From contig CAWKEZ010000110.1 of NCBI GenBank assembly GCA_963848545.1, positions 8,979 through 72,978 of the forward strand: DNA of 64,000 bases. Reading direction: 5' to 3'. Both the position numbers and the translations under genes were made by a program. The DNA is from an uncultured Thermoleophilia bacterium (lineage in GTDB: Bacteria; Actinomycetota; Thermoleophilia; UBA2241). Positions 1-54,449 of this stretch are shown here, one piece after another (the first letter of the stretch is position 1; every line of letters starts with the position of its first letter). The notes under the pieces were generated by a model. It made no database searches, had not been told where the DNA came from, and saw nothing but the letters and a program-made list of their open reading frames with translations.

Positions 1-1577
<1,577 letters not shown>

Positions 1578-1660
1578 TCATCGGCCCTCGGAAGAAGGCG
1601 GTTGGATTGGGGGGACTCCATCCCCAGTCATTTCACTTTAAGATGCGCGGATAATTCGCG

Positions 1661-2536
1661 TCAAGAGACGGCAGCGACCCATCGGACCGCGGCCTCTTGA
1701 AGCGGGGGCGCCATCGAGAGAAAGATATGGGCGCCGTTTGAGCCGACCTCCAGGGTATTTCCCTGGATTCGCACTCCTGTCATTCGCGACCTTGGGATGA
1801 CAAAAGAATCGACTCCGTATCGTTCGGTGGATTCCATCGGGTCACACAAGTACACCAGCTCAAAGGGGTTCAAAACAAGGAGTTGCCTGCGCTGTGCCTC
1901 ATGACGGGACCTCCCGGGGACGGCTGCAAATGAAGAAATAACCGGGGAGTCCTCTTCAAGCCTGACCAGGGGCTCTTGGAGCAGAACTTTCCATTTGTAA
2001 GGCGGTTCAGCCGTCCACGCCTCGGCACGGGGGACGGGCCGGGCGGATCCTGCCAACCTCTTCCTGAGGCGGAGGAGCGCCGGCTCCATTTCACGGCGTG
2101 CCACTGTATTGTAACGGATGGTCAGCCGGTCCCCAAAGGGCACAAAACTGAGCCGACCGTAGAGGAGGATCGCCACGTCCTCGATTGCGGCCACTTTTTC
2201 CAGGGGAATCGAAATCTTCACCCCTGGCTGTGGTTTTTCCGTCCACAAACCAACCGCCCGATCTCCGAGGGCCAGGACGCTGTTGGGAGAAATCACCTTC
2301 TGGCTGAGCCGCCCGACAGAGCGGACCGCCCATGGGATTATGAATATCTGGCTCAGGTCCTGAATACCGCACGTATCCTCAAGAGGCTCGCGGGCGCCTG
2401 ACGGGATGTCGTCTTCACGGCGAGGAGTGTACGGGTGGCTGGCGCGCTCGCTTTTGAAATAGGAGCCCCCTTCAGCTTCTGTAAATTGGATTTCCCAGGT
2501 CTCGGCAGGATCTCGAGAATGAACGGATTCTTTCAT
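1661..2536 (-). CDS. hypothetical protein (291 aa), no recognisable domain
   Basis: Long ORF on same strand as flanking genes; no motif recognised. Confidence 0.35.
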   Translation of the reverse strand: MKESVHSRDPAETWEIQFTEAEGGSYFKSERASHPYTPRREDDIPSGAREPLEDTCGIQDLSQIFIIPWAVRSVGRLSQKVISPNSVLALGDRAVGLWTEKPQPGVKISIPLEKVAAIEDVAILLYGRLSFVPFGDRLTIRYNTVARREMEPALLRLRKRLAGSARPVPRAEAWTAEPPYKWKVLLQEPLVRLEEDSPVISSFAAVPGRSRHEAQRRQLLVLNPFELVYLCDPMESTERYGVDSFVIPRSRMTGVRIQGNTLEVGSNGAHIFLSMAPPLQEAAVRWVAAVS

Positions 2537-2630
2537 GGCTGTGCTTATATGTACGACGAGGATGTTGCTTCGTCAATCCGCGATCAGCGCAGCACGGAAG
2601 GACCGTCCCGCTGCGAGTCGAGGCAGCCAA

Positions 2631-3893
2631 TCAGTTTTTCCGCCATACGCTCGTTCCCCCGAAAAAGACTTCATCAATCGGGGCAATACCCGGGCGGAAA
2701 GCGAGAATCCCCGGGGTCTCGCCGTCCAGGAGCAGGAAGTCGGCGCGCTTTCCCGCGGTGAGGCTCCCCACCTCGGCGCCGAGCCCGAGAGCATACGCGG
2801 CGTTGAGTGTCGCGGCCGCCAGGGCCTCCGTCACGGAGAGGCCCATCTGCAGCACCGCCAGCCCGAACGCGAACGGCATGGATTCGTTGTACGAGGAGCC
2901 TGGGTTGCAGTCCGTAGCGACCGCCACCGGAAGGCCCATGTCGATCATGGCGCGCGCCCGGGCATACGGCTTGCGCATGCTGTACGCGGTTGCCGGCAGC
3001 AGGACCGCGACGACACCGGCGGATGCCATGGCCCTCAGGCCTGCATCGGAAGAAGCGAGGAGATGGTCAGCGGATGCCGCGCCTGCCTCCGCGGCAAGAG
3101 CTGCTCCTCCCGTGTCATGGAGCTCATCAGCATGGAGCCTGCATCCAAGACCTGCCGCGCGCGCCGCCTGGAGGATTCGCCGCGACTGTGAAAGCTCGAA
3201 AACGCCCTGCTCGCAGAAGACGTCGCAGAAACGCGCGAGTCCCTGCCCGGGCGACGGCAGGGACCATTTCCTGCACAATGAGGTCCACGTACGCTTCCTC
3301 GCGTCCCCTGAACTCGGCCGGCACCGCATGGGCGCCGAGAAAAGTGGCAACGATCCGGGGCGGCGCTTCGCCGGCAACGCTGCGGATGACACGCAGCTGC
3401 TTGAGCTCCGCCTCCAGGGAGAGGCCGTAGCCGCTTTTCACCTCCATTGTGGTCGTTCCCAGCCGCAGCGCGGAGTGCGCGCGGGACAGGGTGGCTGCAA
3501 ACAGCTCCGCTTCAGAGGCCGCGCGCACTGATTCCACGGAAGAGAGGATCCCCCCGCCGGCGCGCAGGATCTCCAGGTAGTCAGCGCCCCTGAGCCGGGC
3601 CAGGAACTCTCTTTCCCGCGGTTTCATAAAACACAGGTGTGTGTGGGGATCCACGAAGCCCGGGATCAGGCACCGGCCTCCGCAGTCCATTTCCGCCTGC
3701 ACGGCGGGCGCGCCTTGCGCGGCAAGCGACCCGAGAACCAATGCCTCATCTCCCACGGAAAGAACCCGGCCGTCGCGGCAAAGGAGGGCGCCTTTCTCCC
3801 ACGATTCGACGCTCCCCTGCTGCTGCCCGCGCAGGGCGCGCCCCGCGTCGGGTGGCGTCCAGATGCGCGCGTTGCGGAAGAGGGAGACGCTCA
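2631..3893 (-). CDS. hutI: imidazolonepropionase (HutI), frameshift ~3245-3255 (CCCGGG run)
   Basis: [15 protein letters not shown]...GRCLIPGFVDPHTHL (amidohydrolase metal site) in ORF 3127..4812 frame; C-terminal FCDVFCEQGVF...LHADEL...DCNPGSS in ORF 2631..3392 frame. Confidence 0.8.
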
Positions 3894-4812
3894 TTGCTCG
3901 CCCTGCCCCAGAAGGTCCAGGAGCCTGAGGTCCAGAGACCTGGGTCAACTCGAAGTCGGCCAGCAGGAGGGAGCGCGCCGCGGCGGCCACGAGCGCTTCT
4001 GCGGGAACCAGGCCGTATATTTCTGTTTCCGCCACCTCGATTCCCCTGGCCGCGGCCTCCTTCCGCACAAGCTCCAGCACCTCGTGCAAGGGATTGATGC
4101 GGAAGTCGGTGACGTTGATGCTGACCTGCACCATTCCCTTGTGCTTCAGCTCCACGCCCACGGCCTTCACGTGGGAAAGGCCGCCGCCGGAAGCGCGGAT
4201 GGTGCGAGCAATAGAACGAGCGCCCGCGATGTCCCTGCTCCGCAGGTTGATGTTGAACGCCACGAGGAATTGCCGGGCGCCGATCACCGTTGCTCCGGCG
4301 CTGGGGTGCACGCGCGCCTCCCCCACGTCCGGGGTGCGATCCGGGTTTCCCATTTCCTTCACAAGCGCTTCAAACTGGCCGCGGCGCACGGCTTCCAGGT
4401 TCCGGCGCTCCGGCCGCAGCGCCGCTTCCTCGTAGAGATAGACCGGCACTCCCGTCTCCCGCGCATAGCGCTCGGCGAAGCTTCGCGCCATGGCCACGCA
4501 TTCCTGCATTGAGATGCCGCGCAGGGGCACGAAGGGGATCACGTCCACCGCGCCGATCCTGGGGTGCGCACCGACGTGAATACGAAGGTCAATCGAGGCG
4601 ATTGCCGCGCGCGCCGATGCCAGCAGCGCATCCTGCAGAGGCCGCGGGTGGCCCGCAAGGGTCACCACCAGGCGGTTATGGTCGGGGTCGGCCCGCCAGT
4701 CCAGGAGGTGGACGCCGCGCGCGCCGCGAAACGGGGCGACGATGGCCTCTATCACCTCCTGCCTGCGGCCCTCGCTGTAGTTCGGCACGCATTGCACAAG
4801 GCTGGGGCTCAT
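3894..4812 (-). CDS. ftcD: glutamate formiminotransferase (FtcD-like formiminotransferase domain), read in-frame into hutI with no stop
   Basis: [24 protein letters not shown]... ~305 aa formiminotransferase N+C subdomains; no stop codon before hutI Met; a TGA exists in +1 frame at ~3955. Confidence 0.65.
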
Positions 4813-6525
4813 GCGCCACCTTCCCCAGTCATGGGGATGACGACCCCTCGCTCCTTCGCCGTCTCGATGGCCTTCTCGTATCCCGCGTCCGCATGGCGCA
4901 GAATGCCGGTGGCAGGATCGTTTCTGAGAACAGTAGTGACGCGAAGCTCACCCTCCGCCGTGCCGTCAGCAACGGTCACCTGGCCGGCGTGAAGCGAGTA
5001 GCCAATGCCGACGCCTCCGCCGTGGTGAAAGGACGCCCAGCTCGCACCCGATGCAACGTTCACCATGAGGTTGAGGAGCGGCCAGTCCGCCACCGCATCC
5101 GTGCCGTCCCGCATGGCTTCGGTCTCCCGGTTGGGAGACGCCACGGATCCCGCATCCAGATGGTCCCTGCCTATCACGATGGGCGCCTTGACCCTGCCGG
5201 AGGCCACAAGGTCATTGAAGATCTTTCCCGCTCTGTCGCGCTCGCCATAGCCCAGCCAGCAGATCCTTGCCGGCAGCCCCATGTGCTTCACGCGAGATCG
5301 GGCCAGGCGGAGCCATCGCACCATCCTGGTCTTGTGCGGGGAAAGCTTCCAGGAGCGCCTCATCGGTTGCGTCGATGTCCTTTGGATCACCGGAAAGCGC
5401 CACCCATCGGAAGGGCCCCTCCCCTTCGCAGAAAAGGGGACGGATGTATGCGGGAACGAACCCCGGGTAGTCGAATGCGTTCGTGACTCCATTTGCCAGG
5501 GCCTGGCCGCGGAGGTTGTTTCCGTAGTCGAAAGCCACCGCGCCGCGCGCCTTCATGTCGAGTATGGCCCGGCAGTGCACTGCCATGGAACGACGCGCCG
5601 CCTCGATGTAGCGCCCTGGATCGGACTTTCGCAGCGCAAGGGCAGCATCCAGGCTCATGCCATGAGGCACGTAGCCCCCAAGCTCGTCGTGCGCGCTTGT
5701 CTGGTCCGTCACCACGTCGGGGATGAACCCCGCCTGGACCATCCCCGGGAGAACGTCCGCGGCGTTGCCCGTCACGGCGATGGAGAGCGGCTTCTTTTTT
5801 TCCGCGGCCTCCCGTGCCATCGCCATCGCGGACGCGAGGTCCTTCGCCACGGTGTCCAGGTAGCCCGTTTCCTGCCTTCTCCTTGTCCGCGCGGCGTCCA
5901 CCTCCACGCAGATCAGCACGCCGTCGTTCATGGTCACCGCGAGGGGCTGCGCGCCTCCCATTCCGCCCAGTCCCGCGCTCACCACGATTTTCCCGGCCAG
6001 AGTCGAGCCGAAATGTTTTTCCGCCAGGGCGCCGAATGTCTCGAACGTCCCCTGCAGGATCCCTTGAGTTCCGATGTAGATCCAGGAGCCCGCGGTCATC
6101 TGCCCGAACATCATCAGGCCCCGTCTCTCCAGCTCGTGGAAATGCTCCCATGTGGCCCAATGCGGGACAAGGTTGGAGTTGGCGATCAGCACGCGCGGGG
6201 ACATGCGGTGCGTGCGCAGAATCCCGACCGGCTTGCCGGACTGGACCAGGAGCGTCTCATCGTCGCCAAGGTCAAGAAGGCTGGTCACCAGGGCGTCGAA
6301 GCAGCGCCAGTTGCGGGCGGCCCTCCCCGTCCCGCCATACACGATGAGCTCGTCCGGCTTCTCAGCGTTGCCCGGGTCCAGGTTGTTGCACAACATCCGC
6401 AGGGCCGCCTCCTGGTGCCACCCCTTGCAGTGCAGCTCCACGCCTCGTGGCGCCCGCACAGGCCGCGCTGCCCCGCTCCCGATACCGAGCTCGGCCAGAA
6501 CCTTCTCCCTTGCTGAACCGCTCAT
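4809..6525 (-). CDS. hutU: urocanate hydratase (HutU), frameshift ~5335
   Basis: N-part ORF 5212..6525 ([13 protein letters not shown]-binding) and C-part ORF 4809..5492 ([14 protein letters not shown]...IVIGRDHLD...SPNRETE) overlap in different frames. Confidence 0.85.
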
Positions 6526-6616
6526 GTATAGCCTCCTCGTGAATCCTACGGCGGCTTCTTCTCAGGCGGGTAAAGTACTCAGATATGCCTCAACCACTTT
6601 TGGGTTTTTGGCCAGA

Positions 6617-7285
6617 TCAGCGGCCGGGCCTTCGAGGATCACCCTGCCCCGCCTCGAATACGTAAGCCCGGTCCGCCGCCTCCAGCGCAATGCGCGCATT
6701 CTGCTCGGCAAGAAGAATAGTCTTCCCCTCTGCATGGAGCTGTGCAAGCACCTCGAACAGACGGTCCACCACGACGGGGGCGAGGCCGAGGGAGATTTCG
6801 TCCGCCACGATCACGGAAGGGTCCAGAGCGAGAGCGCGTCCAAGTGCGAGCATCTGCTGCTCCCCGCCGCTCAGGCTTCCGGCGGTCTGCGTCCTGCGCT
6901 CGGCGAGACGGGGAAACAGCTCGTACACTTCACCAAGGACCTCGCGTTCCCTTTTTCCTGAAAGACGCGACGAGGTCACACGCAGATTCTCCTCCACACT
7001 CAAGTCCGGGAAAACATGGCGCCCCTCGGGGACATACCCGATTCCGAGCTCGACGCGGCGAAATGCTGGAATCTCGAGAAGGGAGCGGCCGCAAAAGGTC
7101 GCCACACCCGTTGCCTTCACGAGACCCATAAGACACTTGAGAAGGGTCGTCTTGCCCGCCCCGTTCGCGCCGACGATCGCAGTAAAGCTTCCCCTTGCCG
7201 CTTCGATGGCAACGTCGTGGAGTACGGGGATTCTTCCATATCCCGCGTGGAGGCCCGAAACCGACAGCAGTGCCTCTGCCCTCAT
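6617..7285 (-). CDS. livF: branched-chain amino acid ABC transporter ATP-binding protein LivF
   Basis: Walker A GANGAGKTT, ABC signature LSGGEQQML, 222 aa. Confidence 0.8.
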   Translation of the reverse strand: MRAEALLSVSGLHAGYGRIPVLHDVAIEAARGSFTAIVGANGAGKTTLLKCLMGLVKATGVATFCGRSLLEIPAFRRVELGIGYVPEGRHVFPDLSVEENLRVTSSRLSGKREREVLGEVYELFPRLAERRTQTAGSLSGGEQQMLALGRALALDPSVIVADEISLGLAPVVVDRLFEVLAQLHAEGKTILLAEQNARIALEAADRAYVFEAGQGDPRRPGR

Positions 7286-8074
7286 GGCCTGTTCCCTTCG
7301 CCGGCCTTCGGGCGGGCCGATAGAGAGCCCTCTTTCCCGAGATATGCGCCGATCACCCGCTTATCGTTACGCACCTCCTCGGGGATCCCTTCCGCGATCT
7401 TCCTCCCCTCGTCCAGGACGACGACACGGTCGGAGAGTGACAGCGCGAGGCCGACGTAGTGCTCCACCAGCATGACGGTGAGCCCCGAACGCTGCACACT
7501 CCGAATGAGCTCCGCGAGCGGCCGTATCCCATCCGCGCCTATGCCGGCGGCAGGCTCGTCGAGAAGGAGAAGCGACGGGCGGCTCGCAATGGCCCGGGCG
7601 ATCTCCAGCCGTCGCAGCTCGCCCATGGTGAGCGCGCCCGCGCGGCGCTCCGCCTGCGCCGACAGACCGACCTGCTCCAGCACCTCGTCGACGCGCTCCG
7701 CGATGGAGCGGTTGCGGCCACACGGCGCAAGGCAGCGGAGCGTGTGGAGGATGTTTTTGCCCGCGGCCGAGACCCGGATGTTTTCCCGGACGGTCATCGA
7801 GGAAAAGGGACGCGGGACCTGGAAGCTGCGCCTGACGCCGAGGTGGCTCATGCGCGCCGGCATTGTGCCCTGCACCTCCGTGCCGTCGAACAAGACCTTG
7901 CCGGAGGTGGGCTTGAGCGCCCCGGCAATCACGTTGAAAAGGGTCGTTTTGCCGGCGCCATTCGGGACCGATCACGGCGAGGAACTGCCCCCGCTCGACG
8001 GAAAGGTCGATGGCGTCAAGCGCCTTGAGGCCGCCGAAGCGCACGCACAGGTCCGTGATTTCCAGGAGCGCCAT
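7282..8074 (-). CDS. livG: branched-chain amino acid ABC transporter ATP-binding protein LivG, frameshift ~7940 inside Walker A
   Basis: MALLEITDLCVRFGGLKALD... then GP|NGAGKTTLFNVIAGAL restored only by removing one C from CCC at ~7940; C-part in ORF 7282..7932. Confidence 0.8.
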
Positions 8075-9008
8075 GGCTCTTACGACCTCCCCATGCCCGA
8101 GCCTCCCTGGCGGGGGCCCGGAAGCTGCTTCCGCGAGCGGGGCCAGGGCCATTCCAATGGAGGCGCGACGCCGCGCTCGCTTCCCCAGCCAGACCTTGCG
8201 GCTGGAAACGCAGCATGAGGAGGAGAATCACCCCGAAGGTGAGAAGCCGGAAATTGGAGATGAACCTGAAAGCTTCGGGAAGGGCTCCCAGAATGAGCGC
8301 GCCAAGAAGCGCGCCCCTGATGGTGCCGATTCCTCCGAAAATGAGCATCGAAAGTATGACGACTGATTCGGTGAAACCAAAGCTCGAGGGGGTTATCGCG
8401 CTCAAGAAGGGCGCATATATGCTTCCCGCCATGCCCGCGAAGGCGGCACTCAGCGTAAAGGCGGCCACCTTGTAGGAGGCAACGGGAATACCGACGGACG
8501 AAGAAGCGCTCTCGTCGTCCTTGAGCGCCGTCAGCGACGCCCCGAGCCAGGTTCGCTCCAGGTACTTGCTCGACGCAACGACGAGGGCAAGCATGCATGC
8601 GGCCACCAGCAGAAAGTCCGGATTGCCGAACTGCCGTCCCCCGATGGTCGGCAAGGGGATCGAGTAGATTCCGACCGCTCCCCCGAAAAACGGCACGTAC
8701 TGGAATATTGCGACAACGACGAAGTTGAGGCCGATGGTGGTGATTGCGAGAAAGTCCTCGCGGAGCCGCAGGCTGACGGCGCCGAGGATGAATCCGGCCA
8801 TGCCGGCGACGCTGAAGGAGATCGGTATGGTCAACCAGAAACTGAGATGATAACGGGTTGACAGCACGGCCGCGAAGTAGGCGCCCAGCCCGAGAAAAGC
8901 GCTCTGCGCGAGATTGGGTTGGCCGGCGTAGCCCACGACCATGTTGAGAGCGACGGTAAGCATGGCGTAGATCATGATGGTGACGCCAATGACGATGACG
9001 TAGCTCAC
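8016..9008 (-). CDS. livM: branched-chain amino acid ABC transporter permease LivM (C-terminal tail atypical, possible frameshift/extension)
   Basis: Multi-TM ORF with LivM-like motifs (GYAGQPNLAQSAF..., RFQPQGL); last ~50 aa Arg/Pro-rich and overlapping livG start. Confidence 0.7.
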   Translation of the reverse strand: MSYVIVIGVTIMIYAMLTVALNMVVGYAGQPNLAQSAFLGLGAYFAAVLSTRYHLSFWLTIPISFSVAGMAGFILGAVSLRLREDFLAITTIGLNFVVVAIFQYVPFFGGAVGIYSIPLPTIGGRQFGNPDFLLVAACMLALVVASSKYLERTWLGASLTALKDDESASSSVGIPVASYKVAAFTLSAAFAGMAGSIYAPFLSAITPSSFGFTESVVILSMLIFGGIGTIRGALLGALILGALPEAFRFISNFRLLTFGVILLLMLRFQPQGLAGEASAASRLHWNGPGPARGSSFRAPAREARAWGGRKSHGAPGNHGPVRALRRPQGA

Positions 9009-9874
9009 CGCGTCCCCCTGGGGCCGGGAAGCAGGCCCTGGGGCCGCACGAGAAGTATCGCGATAAGGACGATGAAGGCTATTGCGTCGCGCGGCAGCAC
9101 GAAGCCGGCATACATGACGACGAAAGTCTCCACCAGCCCTATGAGCATCGCGGCCGCGATGGTCCCCAGTGGATTGCCAAGGCCGCCGAGGACGATGATG
9201 GCCAGCATCTTGTACGCCGGTATGTCACCCATCGTGGGGTATACCGTATTGTAGTTTATCCCGAGCATGATGCCCGACACCGCGGCAAGGGAGTAGCCAA
9301 TGACGAAGATGGAGGCGATCACTGCGCGCGTATTGATGCCCATCGCTTCGGCCGTCGGCCCGTCCTGCGAGGTGGCGCGCCAGAAAAGTCCGAGTCTTGT
9401 CCGGCGCAGGGTGAACCAGGTGCCAGTCAGGACGACGCAACCGATGATGAGTATGAGAAGCTGAGCTCCCGTGATGACCGCCCCTCCCAGGCGGAGCGTG
9501 CGCAGGGGAACCCGCGCGGGGAAGGCCAGCGGATAAGGCCCGAACACGAGTCGGAAGGCCTCTTCCATCGCGATGAAAGTCCCGATACTCGCGATCAGGG
9601 GAATGAGGGGTCCTCGATTCAAGATGGGCCGGTACAGGAACCGTTGCAGCCCAAGGCCGAAGAGGGCCGAGGCCACTATCCCTGCGCCGAGGCCCAGGAG
9701 CAGCGAACCGGTGACTCTCCAGATTTTCAGACCCACATAGGCGCCGAGGGTCAGCCCTGCAGCGTTTGCGATGTCCAGAACGCGCAAAAGTCCGTAGATC
9801 AGCGATGGGCCAAGGGCGATCAGGGCGTAGAGCGAGCCGGTCGCAATGCCGTTCAGCAGGCTGGATAAGAACAT
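9005..9874 (-). CDS. livH: branched-chain amino acid ABC transporter permease LivH
   Basis: 289 aa polytopic ORF, 4-nt overlap with livM, LivH-like N-terminus MFLSSLLNGIATGSLYALIALG. Confidence 0.8.
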   Translation of the reverse strand: MFLSSLLNGIATGSLYALIALGPSLIYGLLRVLDIANAAGLTLGAYVGLKIWRVTGSLLLGLGAGIVASALFGLGLQRFLYRPILNRGPLIPLIASIGTFIAMEEAFRLVFGPYPLAFPARVPLRTLRLGGAVITGAQLLILIIGCVVLTGTWFTLRRTRLGLFWRATSQDGPTAEAMGINTRAVIASIFVIGYSLAAVSGIMLGINYNTVYPTMGDIPAYKMLAIIVLGGLGNPLGTIAAAMLIGLVETFVVMYAGFVLPRDAIAFIVLIAILLVRPQGLLPGPRGTR

Positions 9875-9932
9875 CCGGTCTTCTCTTTCGCCCTGACCTC
9901 ACTCACGTGGCCGCTTTGTGCTCCTGCGAGGA

Positions 9933-11097
9933 CTACGGCGTGATGACAGCCGGATCATCCACGATACCGTAATGATGGGGTAACCCGTCCTTCACGATCT
10001 GCAGCTCCACCGCCTTCACGACCTCCCCGGTGGCGTTGTACTTCATGATGGTGCCCGTCACGCCGACGAAATCCTTGACGCTTGCAATGCCTTGCCTGAT
10101 TTGGCCCGCGGCGGTTCCCCTGGCCATGGCGTTCTTGAGCACCAGGAAGGAGTCGTACGTGGTGGCGCCCACCATGTCTGGTGCGTAGCCATAGGCCGCC
10201 GTGAAGCCTTTGATGTAATCGACAACGACCGGTTCCATGCTGTCACGATTGAAGGGCGTCGTGAACACGAGCCCGTTGGCCTGGGCCCCGACCGGCTGGA
10301 AGAACTGGGTCGTTGAGTCCACGCCCTCCGTTCCGACGATCGGGAGCGAAAGGCCGAGAGTGTTCCAGTTGTTCAGGAACTGCTGTCCCTCGGAATAGTA
10401 CTCGACCATGAAATAGCCAGTTGCGCCCTTGGCCTGGTCGCGCATGAGTATGGGCGTGAAATCCTTCTCGCCGAACTGGTTGAAGTCCGTTGCGACGACC
10501 GTTGCGCCGAGCGCTGCGGCCTCGGCCGTAAAGCCTTGAACGAGCGCGGTCCCGAAGTCGTTCTTGATGGCGACGATCGCGATCTTCGTCACGCCGAGGT
10601 CCTTGACAAGAGCCACGGCGGCGGCCTTGCCTTCGACCACTCCGTTGAAATCCTGCTGGAAGATGAAGCGTCCGGTCGCGGGAATGCCGGGGTTGACCGC
10701 GTACGCGGCGAGCATCGGAATGCCGTTCCTCTGGAAGATCGGGGCGGCCGCAAGGGTCTGGTCGCTGTAGGAGCCGCTTACGACAGCGTCGACCTTGTCC
10801 TGGGTGACGAGGCGGGTGGCAATGCTGACCGCCTGCTTGGCGTCGCTGGCGTCATCGTAGTTGATGAGCTGGATCTGCCTGCCATTGATGCCGCCTGGCC
10901 TTGTTGATGTCCACCACGGCGAGCTTCGCTGAGTCATAGGCGCTCTGCCCGTCAGCCGCAGCGAAACCGGACTCGGGAGCGAAAAAGCCGATCTTGATGG
11001 GAGCGCTGCTGCTGGCCGATGGGAAGCTCACGAGGGCTGCAACGACAAACAGCGCCATCAGAGTGAGCCTGGGGATGTACCCGTGCGATTTTTGCAT
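9933..11097 (-). CDS. livK: branched-chain amino acid ABC transporter substrate-binding protein (LivK/LivJ family), frameshift ~10890
   Basis: Signal peptide MQKSHGYIPRLTLMALFVVAALV + IKIGFFAPESG (ORF 10852..11127) continues as GGINGRQIQLINYDDAS... (ORF 9933..10937) after removing one base; RBS AGGAGGG upstream of ATG 11097. Confidence 0.8.
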
Positions 11098-11293
11098 CTC
11101 TTCCCTCCTGTTTCCATGACGTAGCACGGCGCATGCAACGGGACGTGGAGGCCCGCCGCCCTGATCCTCAACGAGGCTGGGTCGGTCGTCTGCGCCGGGC
11201 GGATTGCACTATTTCAGGATTGAAGCACCGTTCCACACTAACACCGGGTAGTTGCGGGGTCAAGTTTGGCTCGCGACTCTGGGCGGGTAATTT

Positions 11294-11600
11294 TCACCCG
11301 CTCCCGAACACAGCCGCAGTCTCTTTCAGGAAAGTGCGGATCGGGATCCCCTGCGGGCACAGGTCCTCGCACTGTCCGCACTCCGTGCACGCGTCAGGTT
11401 TCCCCACGATTCGGGTGTAACCGGTAAGCCAAGGGTCCTTCGTATTCCACATTGATGAGGCATTGAGCGCCGCCATCAACTCGGGAATGGCCACGCCTTG
11501 CGGACACGGCTGGCAGTAGCGGCACGCGCTGCAGTCCACCTTCATCCGCGCTTGCATTGCGGTCCGCGCGGCGTCGTACACGGAAAGGTTCCCCGGCGTC
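11294..11600 (-). pseudogene. C-terminal fragment of an aldo/keto reductase-ferredoxin fusion oxidoreductase (2x CxxCxxCxxxCP), 5' end missing
   Basis: ...KVDCSACRYCQPCPQGVAIPEL...DACTECGQCEDLCPQGIPI...; upstream part of ORF 11294..11848 is antisense to Fic and non-homologous. Confidence 0.5.
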
Positions 11601-11639
11601 AGAGTACTGGGCTTGGCAACGTCAGGCGCGGCGAGATCG

Positions 11640-12433
11640 GCATGGCCAGAACGCCAGGCGAGCTGCGCACCTCGCAGAACTGGATCGGACCGCCCGGTTC
11701 CACGCTGGCCACGGCGACCTACGTGCCGCCCCCCGTGCTCGCCATGCGCGAATCGCTCGCGGCCTGGGAGGTCTTTCTGCGCGAGCGCGGTACCCTGCCC
11801 GACCTGGTGCAGTGCGCGATGGTGCACGAGCAGTTCGAGGCCATTCATCCGTTCGTGGGGGGAACGGGCGCCTGGGCCGCCTGCTGGTCACGCTGTTCCT
11901 CATCGAGCGCCGCCGCTTGACCCGCCCGCTGCTGTATCTCTCCGCCTACCTCGAAGGCCACCGCGACGAGTACTACGCGCTCATGCAACGGGTACGCACC
12001 CATGGGGAGTGGGTCCCTTGGTTGCTGTTCTTCGTCACAGGCGTACGCGAGACGGCGGAACGGGCCACCCGCCAGGCACGCGCTCTCGTTCAGCATCACG
12101 CTCGCCACCGCGGGCTGGTGAAGGGCCGCGCCCTGGCCCTTGCCGACGAGCTCTTTCGCACGCCCTGCATGACCGTGCCCGAGGCCCAGCGTGTCCTCGG
12201 CGCGACCAACCCCACGGCGCGCCGCGCCGTGGGCGAGCTGCTCGAGAAGGGGCTGCTCGAGGAGTGGGGCGAGGAGCGCCGGCCGCGCGTGTACCTGGCG
12301 CGGCACGTCCTCGACGCCGTGCTGCGCCCGGTCGAAGACTTGCGGCAGCTGCCCGGGGCAAAGGCTCAGGGCGCGGTGGTCAAGTCGGCGGCCGGCGAGC
12401 GCCAGGCGCCAACCAGCCGAGGCGACCGCATGA
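11640..12433 (+). CDS. Fic-family protein with C-terminal wHTH, N-terminally truncated, frameshift in Fic motif (~11870, GGGGGG run)
   Basis: PGELRTSQNWIG...HPFVGGNGRLGRLLVTLFL (HPFx[DE]GNGR motif restored by deleting one G); no upstream Fic N-domain; +1 frame has TGATGA double stop exactly at 12431-12436. Confidence 0.6.
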
Positions 12434-13275
12434 TGACCGAGGCCATGGCTCTCATAGACGCCGCCCGCGGGCACGGCGTGCAGCTGCGGCTCACCGGCGG
12501 CCTTGCAGTGCGGCGCTACTGCACCGATCTCGGCTTCATCGACCGGGAGTACTCAGACATCGACCTGGTAGGGCTCTCGCACCAGCAGCGCGAGCTCCAC
12601 GAGGTGTTCACGGCGTTGGGGTACACCCAGAACCGCTACGTGACCCAGGCCACCGACGCGGCGCAGCTGCAGTACATCAAGACGGAGACCTTGGTGCCGC
12701 ACGCGTCGACGCCCGGCGCGAGGACGCCCACGGCGGAGAAGCGCGCGGCGGAGCCGCCGCTCTTCGACCACGCCGACGTCTTCATGGATGTGATGCGCAT
12801 GGACCACGACGTCGATGTTCACGAGCGCCTGGATATTGACGACTACGCCATCTCTCCTGTGGACGCCTTCACCGCCAAGATGCAGATCGGCAGGATCAAC
12901 CAGAAAGACGTGCACGACATCATCGCCCTCGTGAAGGACGTGCCGCTCAGCGAGGTTGGCGACGACTCGTCCATCGATGTGCCGTACCTCGCCGAGGTGT
13001 GCGCCCACGACTGGGGCATCCACCACGACATCACCACCAACCTCGAGGTGGTCATCGCCAGGCTTGACGACTACGGCCTCTCCGAGGAGGAGGTCGCCAG
13101 GGTGTACGGGCGCCTCGCCTCGCTCAGGGAGGCGATCGAGGATGAGGACAAGTCGCTGCGCTGGTGGCTACGCGCGCGCGTCGGTGAGCGCGTCGCCTGG
13201 CGTCGCGAGGTTGAGGAGACCGAGGGTACGCAGGTGATCGCTCCCGAGTGGGATTGGCGGCGCGACCTGGGATAA
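12430..13275 (+). CDS. pol-beta-type nucleotidyltransferase, AbiEii/DUF1814-like (tentative)
   Basis: ATG at 12430 embedded in ATGATGA; LTGGLAVRRYCTDLGFIDREYSDIDLVG fits hGG...DxD NTase motif; 281 aa. Confidence 0.5.
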   Translation: MMTEAMALIDAARGHGVQLRLTGGLAVRRYCTDLGFIDREYSDIDLVGLSHQQRELHEVFTALGYTQNRYVTQATDAAQLQYIKTETLVPHASTPGARTPTAEKRAAEPPLFDHADVFMDVMRMDHDVDVHERLDIDDYAISPVDAFTAKMQIGRINQKDVHDIIALVKDVPLSEVGDDSSIDVPYLAEVCAHDWGIHHDITTNLEVVIARLDDYGLSEEEVARVYGRLASLREAIEDEDKSLRWWLRARVGERVAWRREVEETEGTQVIAPEWDWRRDLG

Positions 13276-13382
13276 GCGCTCGGCGGCCGCGACTGTTTGC
13301 CCCGTTCACTGCTGTGAAATGACTATCGCGACGGTGCGCGTGTGGGCGTGTCATTGGTCTTCGAGGGCAAGGAGCAACGGTC

Positions 13383-13706
13383 ATGGGCGAAGAGTATCTT
13401 CCTGAGGTGTATACGGGGTTTCGCCGCGATTTCCCCGGTGTGGCCGCGGCGCTGGACGGCCTGGGTGAGGCGTTGGACGGGGCCGGACCTCTCGACGAGC
13501 GCACGGCGCGCCTCGTCAAGCTGGGCCTTGCGGTGGGCGCCTTGGCCGAGGGCGCGGTGCGCTCCAACGTGAGAAAGGCGCTGGCCGCCGGGGCCACCTC
13601 TGCCGAGGTGCGCCAGGTGGCCCTTCTGGCGATCACCACCTGCGGCTTCCCGGGCGCCGTTGCCGGACTCGCCTGGGTCGACGAAGTACTGGCCGCCGGC
13701 GCCTGA
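13383..13706 (+). CDS. carboxymuconolactone decarboxylase (CMD/AhpD-like) family protein
   Basis: 107 aa, ...ARLVKLGLAVGALAEGAVRSNVRKALAAGATSAEVRQVALLAITTCGFPGAV typical CMD fold signature. Confidence 0.65.
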   Translation: MGEEYLPEVYTGFRRDFPGVAAALDGLGEALDGAGPLDERTARLVKLGLAVGALAEGAVRSNVRKALAAGATSAEVRQVALLAITTCGFPGAVAGLAWVDEVLAAGA

Positions 13707-13721
13707 GCGGCGCCGGCCGTG

Positions 13722-14411
13722 TCACCAGCCGATACGCCCGCCGTCGCGGGCGCACTTCTCGCGACAGATCTGCGTGATCGCCCGCCGCACCGCGCGGCCG
13801 ATGAGCCAGCCAGCGGGCGTAGCGGGCCCCGCGTACGAGAGTTCCTCGCCGCGCCCAGTACAGGCGATCACCACGGAATCGGTCGACGTGCCGCTGGCCG
13901 GCTCCCCGGCGTCGGTGCGTACGTCCCACTCGGCGAGGGTCATGGTCTTCGCCTCGGTTGCCGTGATGACGGCGTTCACCATGGCGGCGGGGGTGAGGGC
14001 GGCATCGACCAGCAGGATGGTGTTGATCGTCCCGGGACGCGCGGGTGCCGGCGGCGTGACACCGGCGCAGCTGGTGTTGCTGAGCCCCAGGGAGACGGCG
14101 GCGGCGACCGTGATCTGGCGATCGTTCTCCATCGCCACGCGGGCGAACTCCGTGCCGGCCGCGGTCATGAGGCCGACGAACGCCCGGTCGACGCCGGCCT
14201 GCACCGCGAACGCCTCCAGATCATCCGCGGGACGCCCGCCGTCGTACCCCTCGCCGACGTGCATGTTCACGATATCGTGCACGTGACTGAGGCCGCCACC
14301 GATCACGGCCGAGCTCAGCACGGTGAGTGGGTGCCGGCTGGTCACGCGCAGCGCCGTCTCGTCGATGATGACGAAGACTCCCTCGATGCCGGTATCCGGG
14401 GTTAGGGCCAC
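13722..14411 (-). CDS. cbiZ: adenosylcobinamide amidohydrolase (CbiZ family)
   Basis: 229 aa, CbiZ-like motifs (GVFVIIDETALRVTSRHPL..., GTINTILLVDAALTPAAMVNAVITATEAK). Confidence 0.55.
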   Translation of the reverse strand: MALTPDTGIEGVFVIIDETALRVTSRHPLTVLSSAVIGGGLSHVHDIVNMHVGEGYDGGRPADDLEAFAVQAGVDRAFVGLMTAAGTEFARVAMENDRQITVAAAVSLGLSNTSCAGVTPPAPARPGTINTILLVDAALTPAAMVNAVITATEAKTMTLAEWDVRTDAGEPASGTSTDSVVIACTGRGEELSYAGPATPAGWLIGRAVRRAITQICREKCARDGGRIGW

Positions 14412-14426
14412 GGCGGCAATTCTAGC

Positions 14427-15263
14427 TCAGGGTCGCGGCTCGGTGCTGGCCGCCTCGCCGCCGGCCTCTCGCCGCAGCGAACGTGCGGTGCCCAAGAGCG
14501 AACCGAGCAAGATCAGCGGCATGCCCACGGCGATGCCCGCCGTGAGCGGTTCGCCGAGCAGCAGCACGCCGAGGAGCACCGCTACCAGAGGGTTCACATA
14601 GGTGACGATCGTAGTGCGCGACGGGCCTACCTCACGGATGAGAGCGAAGAAAAGGATGAAGGCAAGGGCCGTGCAGACGACGGCCAGACCGGCCACCGCG
14701 GCCACAACCTGGCCCGAGACGGCCGCCGGCGCGTAGTAAAGCCCGGCCGGTGCGTAGACCGCGGCGGTGACCACCAGCGAGGCGGTAACTACGCCCAGAC
14801 TGGGCAAGCCGTCAAGCCGCCGGCTGACGATCAGCGGGCCGCTGGCATAGCACAGCGCCACGACCAGCACTTCTGCGGCGGCCAGCGGCTGCGCGCCGCC
14901 CACGTCGATGCCCACCAGCGCCGCCACCCCGGCAAAACCGATCACGAGCCCGGCGAGACGGCGGGCATCGAGATGGTCGCTCACGCCTACGGCGCGATAG
15001 AGCAAGGCCGCGATGAGTGGCACCGAGGCGACGAGCAGCCCGGCCATGGAGCTCGTCAAACGCTCCTCGGCGTGCGAGAGGAGCAACCAGGGCACGGCGA
15101 GCTCGATGGCCGTGTAGGCGAGCACCCAGCGCCAGCGGGCGAGGAGCGCGCGCAGCTTGCCGCGGCGAAGGGCCAGCGGCATGAGCATGAGGGCCGCCGG
15201 CGCCGTGCGAAAGAACACCAGCGTCGGCGGGGACAGCTCGCCGACCGCCACGCGGATGAGCAT
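14427..15263 (-). CDS. EamA/DMT-family transporter; first TM helix encoded in-frame upstream (to ~15335) without a canonical start
   Basis: 10-TM-like ORF; upstream in-frame RKGWLLFIALCLIWGTPYMLIRVAV is a typical DMT TM1 but preceded by stop with no ATG/GTG/TTG. Confidence 0.65.
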   Translation of the reverse strand: MLIRVAVGELSPPTLVFFRTAPAALMLMPLALRRGKLRALLARWRWVLAYTAIELAVPWLLLSHAEERLTSSMAGLLVASVPLIAALLYRAVGVSDHLDARRLAGLVIGFAGVAALVGIDVGGAQPLAAAEVLVVALCYASGPLIVSRRLDGLPSLGVVTASLVVTAAVYAPAGLYYAPAAVSGQVVAAVAGLAVVCTALAFILFFALIREVGPSRTTIVTYVNPLVAVLLGVLLLGEPLTAGIAVGMPLILLGSLLGTARSLRREAGGEAASTEPRP

Positions 15264-15570
15264 GTAGGGTGTGCCCCAGATGAGGCACAGGGCGATAAAC
15301 AGCAGCCAGCCTTTGCGAGACAGGGCGCCACTCCCTCGGGTATATGTGTGGCCGGCGCGGGCCGGTCACGGCGGCCGGAGGTGTGAGAAGAGTGTATGCG
15401 CTTGGCCGCGGTGGCGCTGACTGGTGTCTACAGAACGCTCCTTGCGTGGTGGAGGCAAAGGGGCTATCGTTTATAGTTCGTCTGGCGTCCGCCGTTCCGG
15501 CGCGCCGCCTCCGCTACAGAAGTGGCCCCACCACGGGCCGAAGCACGCGACAACGGGCAGGAGACGCCGA

Positions 15571-16689
<1,119 letters not shown>

Positions 16690-16795
16690 CCGACGCAGTC
16701 GGGTCGGCGTGCGGGGCGCCGCAAGTGCACCGCACGCTGGACTTGGCCGGACCGTTGCGAGGCGGTAGACGGGGAGGCGTGATAGCGTCTCCCCC

Positions 16796-52647: not shown

Positions 52648-53580
52648 ATGATCAAGCTCTTCTTCGTCACCGACGTGCACGGCTCGAACGTCTGCTACCG
52701 CAAGTTCCTGAACGCCCTGCCGATCTACGGCGTCGATGTCGCCGTGATGCTCGGCGACCTCACCGGCAAGGTGCTCGTGCCCTTAGTCGAGAAGGGCAAC
52801 GACGCCTGGGAGTGCACCCTCATGGGTCAGCACCGCGACATCGCCAGCAAAGAGGAGCTCGCCGAGTACAAGAAGGTCATCGAGAACGCCGGCTACTACT
52901 GGGTCCACCAGAGCCGCGAGGAGTTCGAGGAGACGCGCGCCGACCCGGCCAAGATCGACACGCTCTTCAAGAGCCTCGTCTTTACGCGCGTGCAGGAGTG
53001 GCTCGACTTAGCCGACGAGCGCCTCGAGGGCAAGCCCTACGAGATGTACATGTGCCCCGGCAACGACGACTGGTTCGTGATCGACGACATGATCGACGCC
53101 GCCAAGCTGATCCACCCCTGCGACAAGCGCGTGGTCGACGTCGGCGGCCACGAGATGGTGACCAGCTCGGCCTCCAACCCGACGCCCTGGGATACCCCCC
53201 GCGAGATGAGCGAGGTCGACCTCGAGGCGCACCTGCGCGCCCTCACCGAGCAGATCAAAAACCAGGAGACGGCGATCTACAACTTCCACGTGCCGCCCTA
53301 CGGCTACTCGCTCGACCTCTGCCCCAAGCTCGACGAGAACCTCACCATGGCGGCCGAGGAGAAGATCCACGCCGGCAGCCTGGGCGCCAAGAAGCTGATC
53401 GAGGAGAACCAGCCGCTGCTCGGCCTCTTCGGCCACATCCACGAGAGCCGTGGTGCCCAGAAGGCCGGCCGCACGCTGCTCATCAACCCCGGCAGCGAGT
53501 ACTCCGAGGGCATCTTGAAAGGTGTTATCGTCATGCTCGACAAGAAGAAGGTGAAAGACTACGTCTTCACGTCGGGCTGA
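52648..53580 (+). CDS. calcineurin-like metallophosphoesterase
   Basis: DVHG (motif I), GDLTG, GNDD, GHIHE motifs; intact 310-aa ORF; lower GC than surroundings. Confidence 0.7.
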   Translation: MIKLFFVTDVHGSNVCYRKFLNALPIYGVDVAVMLGDLTGKVLVPLVEKGNDAWECTLMGQHRDIASKEELAEYKKVIENAGYYWVHQSREEFEETRADPAKIDTLFKSLVFTRVQEWLDLADERLEGKPYEMYMCPGNDDWFVIDDMIDAAKLIHPCDKRVVDVGGHEMVTSSASNPTPWDTPREMSEVDLEAHLRALTEQIKNQETAIYNFHVPPYGYSLDLCPKLDENLTMAAEEKIHAGSLGAKKLIEENQPLLGLFGHIHESRGAQKAGRTLLINPGSEYSEGILKGVIVMLDKKKVKDYVFTSG

Positions 53581-53642: not shown

Positions 53643-54449
53643 ATGGGACAGTTCATACTCCCGAAGGACATACCGCTCGACCGGTATCCCAAACCCGAGG
53701 TGTTTCTCGATGAGGGCAAGCGGATCGCGGAGGCGGCCCAGAAGCAGGGCATCGTCATGCGCGTCATGGGTCCGTTGGCGCTGCACTACTACTTCCCCGA
53801 CCAGATAGATCTGTACGCGAGTCTCGAGCGCCTCGGTGAGCGTTACTTCACCGATATCGACTACGCCACCTACGGCAAGACGCGCAAGCACCTGGTGAAG
53901 TTCATGGAGTCGGTGGGCTACGAGTGCGACCTGCAGACGATGGCCATGACCGGCACCACGCGCCACATCTACTTCGGCGGCAAGGTGCCCATGATCGACG
54001 TCTTCATCGACAAGCTCGACTACTGCCACGAGGTCAACTACGACGGTCGCCTGGAGCTCGATCCCTGGAGCGTGTCGCTGGCCGACATCCTCCTGCAGAA
54101 GCTGCAGATCTGGGAGATCAACGACAAGGACCTCAAAGACATCGAGTACCTTTTCACGGTCGCCGACTTCGGCGAAGACGATACTAAGAAGGTCAACGTC
54201 GGCTACATCGCACGGCGGTTCGCCGACGACTGGGGCTTCTGGTACACCGGCACCACGAACCTCCAGCGTGTCAAGGATCATGTGGACAACGTCGCCGCCC
54301 TGAGCGACGAGCAGAAGGCCAAGATCAAGCAGGTCTCCGACAACGTGAAGGGCCGCATCGACCAGGAGCCGAAGACCAAGAAGTGGGACAAGCGCTCCAA
54401 GAAGGGCACCAAGAAGCTCTGGTACAACACAGGCTTCTCCGACTGGTGA
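53643..54449 (+). CDS. hypothetical protein (268 aa), Lys-rich C-terminus
   Basis: Intact ORF, lower GC, no confident domain (weak G...DxD-like MGPLALHYY...TDIDYAT). Confidence 0.4.
   Translation: MGQFILPKDIPLDRYPKPEVFLDEGKRIAEAAQKQGIVMRVMGPLALHYYFPDQIDLYASLERLGERYFTDIDYATYGKTRKHLVKFMESVGYECDLQTMAMTGTTRHIYFGGKVPMIDVFIDKLDYCHEVNYDGRLELDPWSVSLADILLQKLQIWEINDKDLKDIEYLFTVADFGEDDTKKVNVGYIARRFADDWGFWYTGTTNLQRVKDHVDNVAALSDEQKAKIKQVSDNVKGRIDQEPKTKKWDKRSKKGTKKLWYNTGFSDW

Follow-up and report, generated by a model that had tools for sequence, protein, structure and literature searches.

SoFic of Shewanella oneidensis, a class-II Fic AMPylase, dimerises by an N-terminal helix, AMPylates switch I of EF-Tu and deAMPylates constitutively, and its C-terminal winged helix-turn-helix (wHTH) domain binds its own promoter; the Fic catalytic motif is given in the same work as HPFx(D/E)GN(G/K)R (bioRxiv 10.64898/2026.07.09.737422). 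In E. coli, Sofic is toxic, and a 47-residue protein encoded downstream counters the toxicity (PMC12249575). The MenT toxins are nucleotidyltransferases (NTases) that extend tRNA 3' ends. Among them, MenT1 modifies tRNA acceptor stems and was placed with the DUF1814/AbiEii-like toxins (PMC7450476). Control of MenT toxins by auto-phosphorylation is reported in PMC11375011. Here we analyze a stretch of 64,000 nucleotides from an uncultured Thermoleophilia bacterium (assembly GCA_963848545.1, contig CAWKEZ010000110.1, positions 8,979 to 72,978 of the forward strand), hereafter the window, in which Fic-like sequence occupies two plus-strand frames within 11,498-13,275 and is joined to a pol-beta-type NTase sequence. 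A previous sequence-only reading had taken these parts for two adjacent genes. We conclude, with considerable confidence, that window positions 11627-13275 are instead one gene, a 5'-truncated and once-frameshifted copy of a conserved Thermoleophilia protein of about 687 residues that is encoded by a single open reading frame (ORF).

Gene structure in the window and its relatives

The relatives comprised 76 loci from a scan of one genome per species, nearly all of them metagenome-assembled genomes (MAGs) of Thermoleophilia/Actinomycetota, and two metagenome contigs, 78 loci in total. At least 54 of them have both HPFxxGNGR and RLxGGLAxR within one stop-to-stop ORF of 690-740 codons, and no in-frame stop between the wHTH and the NTase was found in the window or in these relatives. 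Short-read MAGs with the uninterrupted fused ORF include L004, L006, L009, L012, L018, L019, L024 and L028. The Fic and NTase parts are contiguous by tblastn in about 70 of the 78 loci, so that the Fic-NTase association seen in the sequence-only reading is real and conserved. When the NTase part was used for searching (281 residues), its homologues carried a wHTH or half of a Fic domain N-terminally in the same polypeptide, and two metagenome contigs with such homologues had a complete Fic N-terminus upstream, each being frameshifted at a different place.

The closest relative, locus L003 (coding sequence 3768-5831), encodes a protein of 687 amino acids that is identical to database protein P0121. 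With this full-length protein as the query, more than 100 of the 120 matches listed (P0121-P0240) are about 675-765 amino acids long at 94-100% query coverage, with one at 75%. Their source names, where given, are 'Fic family protein' or protein adenylyltransferase, and their precomputed Pfam annotations consist of Fic_N and Fic, with PF07756 added in two of them. The intact order is Fic_N with SSRIEG, a Fic core with HPF[VIL]GGNGRLGR, a SoFic-type wHTH, a flexible linker and an NTase of about 280 residues with a pol-beta fold. Both halves are conserved in the family, as is the C-terminal APEWDWRRDLG tail. Between the window and L003, which share 88% nucleotide identity, dN/dS is 0.096 for Fic plus wHTH and 0.17 for the NTase, and across the linker (37 codons, read in the fused frame) dN is 0 and dS 0.27. 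Judged by these ratios, the fusion gene is under purifying selection. Since the same parts are fused in at least 54 relatives and the linker changes are purely synonymous in the fused frame, we consider the locus to be one gene and not two.

The window copy fits this architecture once its frames are joined. Fic homology sets in at about 11627-11640, and the frame 2 sequence (...GMARTPGELRTSQNWIGPPG...HEQFEAIHPFVGG) extends as far as a run of six G at 11857-11862. After this run, frame 1 continues with GNGRLGRLLVTLFLIERRRL..., the winged helix and the linker (...GAVVKSAAGERQAPTSRGDR), and it is stop-free from the linker into MMTEAMALIDAARGHGVQLRLTGGLAVRRY...SDIDLV..., ending at the TAA at 13273-13275. 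The ORF at 11557-13275 (572 codons) thus holds, uninterrupted in frame 1, the C-terminal half of Fic, the wHTH and the NTase, and its 281-codon portion from 12430 to 13275 contains LTGGLAVRRY...SDIDLV. With the L003 protein as tblastn query, residues 172-256 match window frame 2, and residues 253-719 match frame 1 at 90% identity. The Fic core in frame 2 is recognized by Pfam Fic (E 1.2e-6) and by positions 150-200 of the NCBIfam SoFic model, of which positions 197-352 of 361 align on the ORF at 11557-13275. Inserting one G after 11862 gives 549 codons without interruption over 11627-13272. The parts and their coordinates are collected in Table 1.

The sequence-only reading had described the fused ORF, the 281-codon reading with its motif, and an ATGATGA heptamer, all of which are present, and it had regarded the heptamer as the overlapping stop and start of two translationally coupled genes. 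The heptamer lies at 12430-12436, with GAGG 8 nucleotides upstream. However, its TGA at 12431-12433 ends an 80-codon frame 2 ORF (12191-12433), whereas the C-terminus of Fic and the wHTH, together with the linker, use frame 1, as does the NTase, so that the frame of the TGA is unused there. Nor is the heptamer rare, as it occurs 8 times in the window against an expected 3.65 +/- 2.0. In place of the ATG ATG ACC of the window, most relatives have CTC ATG GCC, so that the out-of-frame TGA is absent and the overlapping stop is unconserved. A start at the ATG at 12430 would moreover remove a conserved R..DR[LM]M, residues that are kept also in stand-alone homologues of the NTase. Translational coupling of two genes is therefore rejected on the strength of the one-frame ORF, the TGA in an unused frame, the unconserved stop and the loss of conserved residues.

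Table 1. Parts of the fusion gene and of the adjoining junction, in window coordinates
Feature	Position	Strand	Remarks
Fic core	11627..11862	+	Frame 2; residues 144-222 of the 687-residue family protein; ends HPFVGG
G6 run, one base short compared with relatives	11857..11863	+	Frame 2 to frame 1 within HPFVG-GNGR
Remaining Fic fold, GNGRLGRLL... and next helices	11863..12159	+	Frame 1
SoFic-type C-terminal wHTH, TVPEAQRVLG...RVYLARHVLDAV	12160..12321	+	SoFic hidden Markov models span the region; weak Pfam HTH_20
Interdomain linker, 32 codons, same frame	12322..12417	+	Variable except h-K-[S/T]
NTase-fold domain	12418..13275	+	Pol-beta core RLTGGLAVRR, SDID, DHADVFMDVMRMDH; C-terminal helical lobe; stop 13273-13275
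Junction	11620..11626		Break in homology, composition and synteny; both divergent genes lose their 5' ends
Aldo/keto-reductase-type gene, C-terminal part of about 105 codons (2x[4Fe-4S] part)	11294..11620	-	5' two-thirds missing; Pfam Fer4_9/Fer4_17

In many relatives, two paralogous fusion genes of about 60% identity are present, the second copy lying roughly 2-4 kb downstream (loci L019, L020, L023, L026, L032, L037, L039, L043, L047 and L048), with an S9 peptidase gene and at some loci also NlpC/P60 between the copies. A description of the fusion was not found in the literature searched on Fic and NTase architectures or on PF14907. The family is abundant and conserved in soil Thermoleophilia, often with two paralogues per genome, and its C-terminal 280 residues fall below the threshold of every curated model tested.

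The Fic and nucleotidyltransferase halves

The upstream part had been read as a Fic enzyme with a C-terminal wHTH, and Pfam and SoFic model matches bear this out. In full-length relatives, Pfam recognizes Fic_N at E 2e-17 and Fic at E 1e-14, and the SoFic defence model of PADLOC (PDLC03963) covers the N-terminal 375 or so residues of the family at E 9e-97, from position 5 to 358 of 361. The NCBIfam SoFic model aligns from 12 to 338 of 361 on full-length relatives; in the corresponding equivalog NF046030, two of these proteins score 154 and 174 bits and the window fragments 79 and 40 bits, below its cut-off of 550 bits. The C-terminal wHTH is the region in which the SoFic models reach positions 338-358 of 361, with weak matches to HTH_20, MarR_2 and IclR HTH. 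The class-II inhibitory motif (S/T)xxxE(G/N) is present as SSRIEG or SARIEG in 48 of 54 members (searched with a loose pattern). Fic_N and this motif thus belong to the family and are absent from the window copy, in which residues 1-143 are missing, that is, the Fic_N region with the dimerisation helix and the inhibitory motif.

Of 54 members, 47 have HPF[VIL]GGNGRLGR as their catalytic motif, with Gly at the canonical D/E position, which departs from HPFx(D/E)GN(G/K)R. The remaining 7 members have HPFLEGNGR and form a second paralogue clade, and three loci outside the 54 (L064-L066), which form a third clade, have HPFVDSNGR. In the window, the motif reads HPFVG-GNGR and is broken by the frameshift.

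The linker between the halves is variable save for an invariant h-K-[S/T], in which K occurs in 54 of 54 members, S in 52 and T in 2. The K and S are encoded in the window by 12382-12384 and 12385-12387, and they correspond to L003 residues 396-397. This K-[S/T] may be regarded as a candidate site of intramolecular modification.

The downstream part had been likened to AbiEii/DUF1814 toxins, and this likeness survives at the level of the fold, where MenT1 is the nearest solved structure, but not at the level of the family. The AbiEii model PF08843 did not match the window protein (E up to 0.1) or any of 26 family members (E up to 1). What the motifs and the predicted fold do uphold is an NTase of the pol-beta superfamily. 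In the family alignment, the invariant residues are G23-G24, D43-I44-D45, H114/D116/D120 and a Lys/Asp set in the helical C-terminal lobe, with D116/D120 on a later strand than D43/D45. Pol-beta motifs I and II (hG[GS] and [DE]h[DE]h) are thus present, and they mark the superfamily and not the DUF1814 family. In an AlphaFold2 model of the domain (pLDDT 83, pTM 0.80), the nearest solved structures found by Foldseek were MenT1 (E 7.7e-4, probability 1.0, TM-score 0.39 for the query and 0.56 for the target), ANT(2'')-Ia and LnuA; LnuA had the best target-normalised TM-score (0.69), and TglT/MenT3 appeared only at rank 19.

At the sequence level, a profile of the NTase family searched against all PDB sequences gave only chance matches, with no chain accepted at E up to 1, and the domain had no PADLOC or NCBIfam match. 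Below threshold, 15 of 26 members matched NTP_transf_5 (PF14907) at E up to 1, the best of them at E 3e-6, and 8 of 26 matched Aminoglyc_resit. Relative to the NTP_transf_5 gathering threshold of 31.2 bits, scores were 17.1 bits for the window NTase, 21.8 bits for the fused ORF and 24.9 bits for the L003 protein, and the 17 bits of the window protein compare with cut-offs of 31.2 and 21 for NTP_transf_5 and Aminoglyc_resit. Motifs and model together indicate that the domain is a pol-beta-superfamily member of an unnamed family, AbiEii-like only at the level of the fold, in which the predicted catalytic motifs GG...DxD...D are intact.

This family comprises 2,247 cluster representatives (E up to 1e-3), mostly stand-alone proteins of about 255 amino acids, whose cluster members have almost no source names and none that are informative. 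Five stand-alone homologues that were checked have varying neighbours, with no Fic gene within the fetched flanks. The window itself holds a distant stand-alone paralogue at 53643-54449 on the plus strand (268 amino acids, 26% identity, the same motif set). This gene has no Pfam or PADLOC match and lies in a lower-GC stretch, 63 nucleotides downstream of a calcineurin-like metallophosphoesterase gene (52648-53580, plus strand).

Junction, frameshift and neighbourhood

The window copy has two defects, a lost 5' end and a frameshift. By blastn, window 11626-13276 corresponds to L003 4196-5832, with nothing matching to the left. Across the junction, GC content rises from about 0.61 to 0.69, and the correlation of tetranucleotide usage between 1-11625 and the rest of the window is 0.78-0.90, compared with 0.89-0.98 within the rest, its own low-GC stretch included. 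The left 11.6 kb consists of a Liv-type ABC transporter operon and the fragment of an aldo/keto reductase with iron-sulfur clusters, at a GC content of about 0.63 and with a usage unlike that of all the remaining 52 kb. When the sequence at 11294..11620 was compared with plasmids by tblastn, query residues 16-114 matched genes annotated as 'aldo/keto reductase', in their C-terminal part. Within the Liv-type operon, the substrate-binding protein (SBP) gene (9933-11127, minus strand) is split in two frames near 10893, with the signal peptide and N-terminus in 10852-11127 and the remainder in 9933-10937, and the cause looks like an insertion of one nucleotide (GCC A GGC GGC) outside a homopolymer. 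The junction looks like a contig concatenation or a chimeric join and not like a biological boundary. We also considered an island inserted into the Fic gene and rejected it, as the left segment ends in its own truncated gene and the join is without repeat, integrase or tRNA.

The frameshift had been described as a homopolymer frameshift in the Fic motif, which is what we find. One nucleotide is lacking at the G6 run, at 11863, where L003 has GGGGGC and the window GGGGGG-, so that HPFVGG falls in frame 2 and the following GNGRLGR in frame 1. Among frameshifted relatives, the positions of the shift differ from locus to locus, and by a hand count, frameshifts affect 12 of about 42 nanopore-style MFD loci and 1 of about 27 other loci. 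On balance, we think that a technical origin of both defects (contig concatenation, chimeric join, homopolymer miscall) is more probable than a biological one.

The biological alternative is that two divergent genes lost their 5' ends in this genome through a rearrangement or deletion and that the remnant was then frameshifted, which would make the window copy a recent pseudogene. Three points speak for it. The sequence is continuous over the junction, where neither a run of N nor anything else marks a contig boundary. Over about 4.3 kb of coding DNA in synteny with L003, the G-run deletion is accompanied by no other non-triplet indel; the assembly as a whole is therefore not rich in errors, and the frameshift may be a genuine mutation. 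Finally, the SBP gene close by carries a second frameshift, near 10,893 and outside a homopolymer, which could mean regional gene decay. However, the tetranucleotide usage of the left segment is as expected of DNA from elsewhere, the join lacks a repeat, an insertion sequence element and an integrase, and the remnant has a dN/dS of 0.1-0.17, which means that any inactivation would have to be very recent. Nanopore-derived relatives of this GC-rich gene, moreover, commonly have frameshifts, and these lie at varied positions. We hold biological damage to be the less probable of the two readings.

To the right of the junction, the gene order of the window is as in relatives, with CMD, (CbiZ), EamA and a sigma factor. 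The CbiZ gene (adenosylcobinamide amidohydrolase, 13722-14411, minus strand) lies between CMD and EamA and is absent there in L003, with which the window is otherwise syntenic over 11626-16692. By targeted tblastn, the neighbours of the fusion gene in relatives are an S9 peptidase (42 loci), CMD (30), NlpC/P60 (29) and YggT (14). No integrase, transposase or other mobility marker was seen, and no biosynthetic or resistance genes are conserved near the fusion gene. A promoter scan of the locus found nothing, which carries little weight for a high-GC actinobacterium.

The locus is a case of conserved chromosomal synteny within one class and does not fit a mobile defence cassette. Because this synteny is conserved across the class, adjacency alone says little on function. 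The idea of a degraded mobile defence cassette thus holds in its first part, in that the copy is degraded as sequenced, and fails in its second, as chromosomal synteny is conserved across Thermoleophilia. For the window, a false lead is thereby removed, since what remains is neither a Fic/AbiEii gene pair nor a mobile defence cassette but a truncated, frameshifted single gene at a suspicious join.

Possible functions and comparison with described systems

By analogy with SoFic, the Fic half would probably dimerise, be auto-inhibited, and both add and remove AMP on a protein hydroxyl, with its wHTH probably providing autoregulation by DNA binding. The tethered NTase would then be a second nucleotidyl-transfer module, whose coupling in cis with the Fic half would most plausibly come about by modifying either the conserved hydroxyl of the linker or the partner domain. 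Such a protein would be a single-chain counterpart of toxin/enzymatic-antitoxin pairs. We favour such a cis-coupled switch because both catalytic centres are conserved and an otherwise variable linker keeps its invariant h-K-[S/T]. Regulation in cis, in which one domain would control the other by covalently modifying either the linker or its partner, is put forward here tentatively. It is equally tentative to suppose that the family represents a new single-chain self-regulating switch, whose SoFic-type Fic and MenT/ANT-like NTase might act on each other via K-S/T, or jointly on the translation machinery. If true, a toxin and its enzymatic antitoxin, or a writer and its eraser, would be united in one polypeptide that is kept as a core chromosomal gene of Thermoleophilia.

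There are conceptual parallels for this idea. In MntA-HepT and in MenA3-MenT3 (type VII toxin-antitoxin systems), an enzyme that transfers nucleotidyl or phosphoryl groups controls its partner by covalent modification, and in writer/eraser proteins of the GlnE type, two nucleotidyl-transfer modules are found in one polypeptide. To our knowledge, the fusion protein has no homology to MntA, HepT or GlnE, and the parallel is conceptual only.

Several observations weigh against the switch. The acidic residue of the Fic motif is replaced by Gly in most members as described above, and because this residue is lost, SoFic-like AMPylation chemistry may not apply to the family. The fold matches of the NTase are weak, with query TM-scores of about 0.4. 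A full-length AlphaFold2 model was also built (41 sequences of 70-86% identity) and then discarded, as its quality (pLDDT 60, pTM 0.42) is too poor to show domain contacts, packing or docking of the linker.

Rather than regulating each other, the two halves might each shut down translation as independent effectors, with the Fic half AMPylating an EF-Tu-like GTPase and the NTase extending tRNA 3' ends like MenT, as a growth-arrest or defence enzyme. The catalytic residues are conserved in both halves, SoFic is toxic and AMPylates switch I of EF-Tu, and MenT1, the best structural neighbour of the NTase, modifies tRNA acceptor stems. However, the NTase resembles MenT1 weakly, no more than it resembles the small-molecule NTases ANT(2'')-Ia and LnuA, the canonical acidic residue of the Fic motif is absent in most members, and the gene is vertically inherited, syntenic, often duplicated and chromosomal rather than island-borne. 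We therefore regard a two-headed enzyme of this kind as rather unlikely.

It is also conceivable that the NTase has a small molecule as its substrate, as do enzymes of the ANT(2'')/LnuA or NTP_transf_5 kind, in which case the Fic-wHTH part might be mainly a transcription factor controlled by a ligand or by modification. Consistent with this, the only family signals at the sequence level come from NTP_transf_5 (15 of 26 members) and from the aminoglycoside-2''-adenylyltransferase family (8 of 26), LnuA has the best target-normalised TM-score, and SoFic and CccR-type Fic-wHTH proteins bind promoters. However, all of these family matches lie below curated thresholds and the neighbourhood offers no conserved biosynthetic or resistance genes, which makes a small-molecule NTase improbable in our judgement.

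Next to no credence can be given to the model of two separate genes, one for Fic-wHTH and one for an AbiEii-like NTase, that are coupled via ATGATGA as a toxin-antitoxin or abortive-infection pair, with the fused ORF as a sequencing accident, for although known SoFic systems may have a small downstream antitoxin gene (PMC12249575) and the nearest solved fold of the NTase is that of a toxin, MenT1, the relatives are stop-free between the parts in short-read assemblies too, and the AbiEii model does not match. Nor is there an AbiEi-type partner, the position assigned to it being taken by the covalently fused Fic-wHTH sequence.

In the fusion protein, two different nucleotidyl-transfer folds are joined in one chain, and relatives of both arrest translation, SoFic through EF-Tu and MenT through tRNA. 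These dual folds and the loss of the acidic residue from the Fic motif offer a concrete, testable case for the regulation or the diversification of Fic enzymes. Compared with ANT(2'')-Ia, LnuA and NTP_transf_5, the NTase core shares with this group the sole sequence-level signals that it has, those of NTP_transf_5 and Aminoglyc_resit, whereas the C-terminal lobe and the tail APEWDWRRDLG set this family apart and a resistance context is lacking. With MenT1, MenT3 and AbiEii, it has in common the pol-beta core, the helical C-terminal lobe and the metal-binding motifs hGG...DxD, but a separate antitoxin gene (AbiEi/COG5340 or MenA) is not found here and the domain is fused to a Fic enzyme. With SoFic, the N-terminal part of the family protein aligns end to end, including Fic_N, the inhibitory motif (SSRIEG in the family, SSEIEN in SoFic), the catalytic His, GNGRxxR and the wHTH. 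The family differs from SoFic in the Gly that most members have at the acidic position of the Fic motif, in its score far below the equivalog cut-off, in having no small downstream AS1-like gene, in its position within chromosomal synteny rather than a defence island, and in the addition of about 310 C-terminal residues, which form the linker and the NTase.

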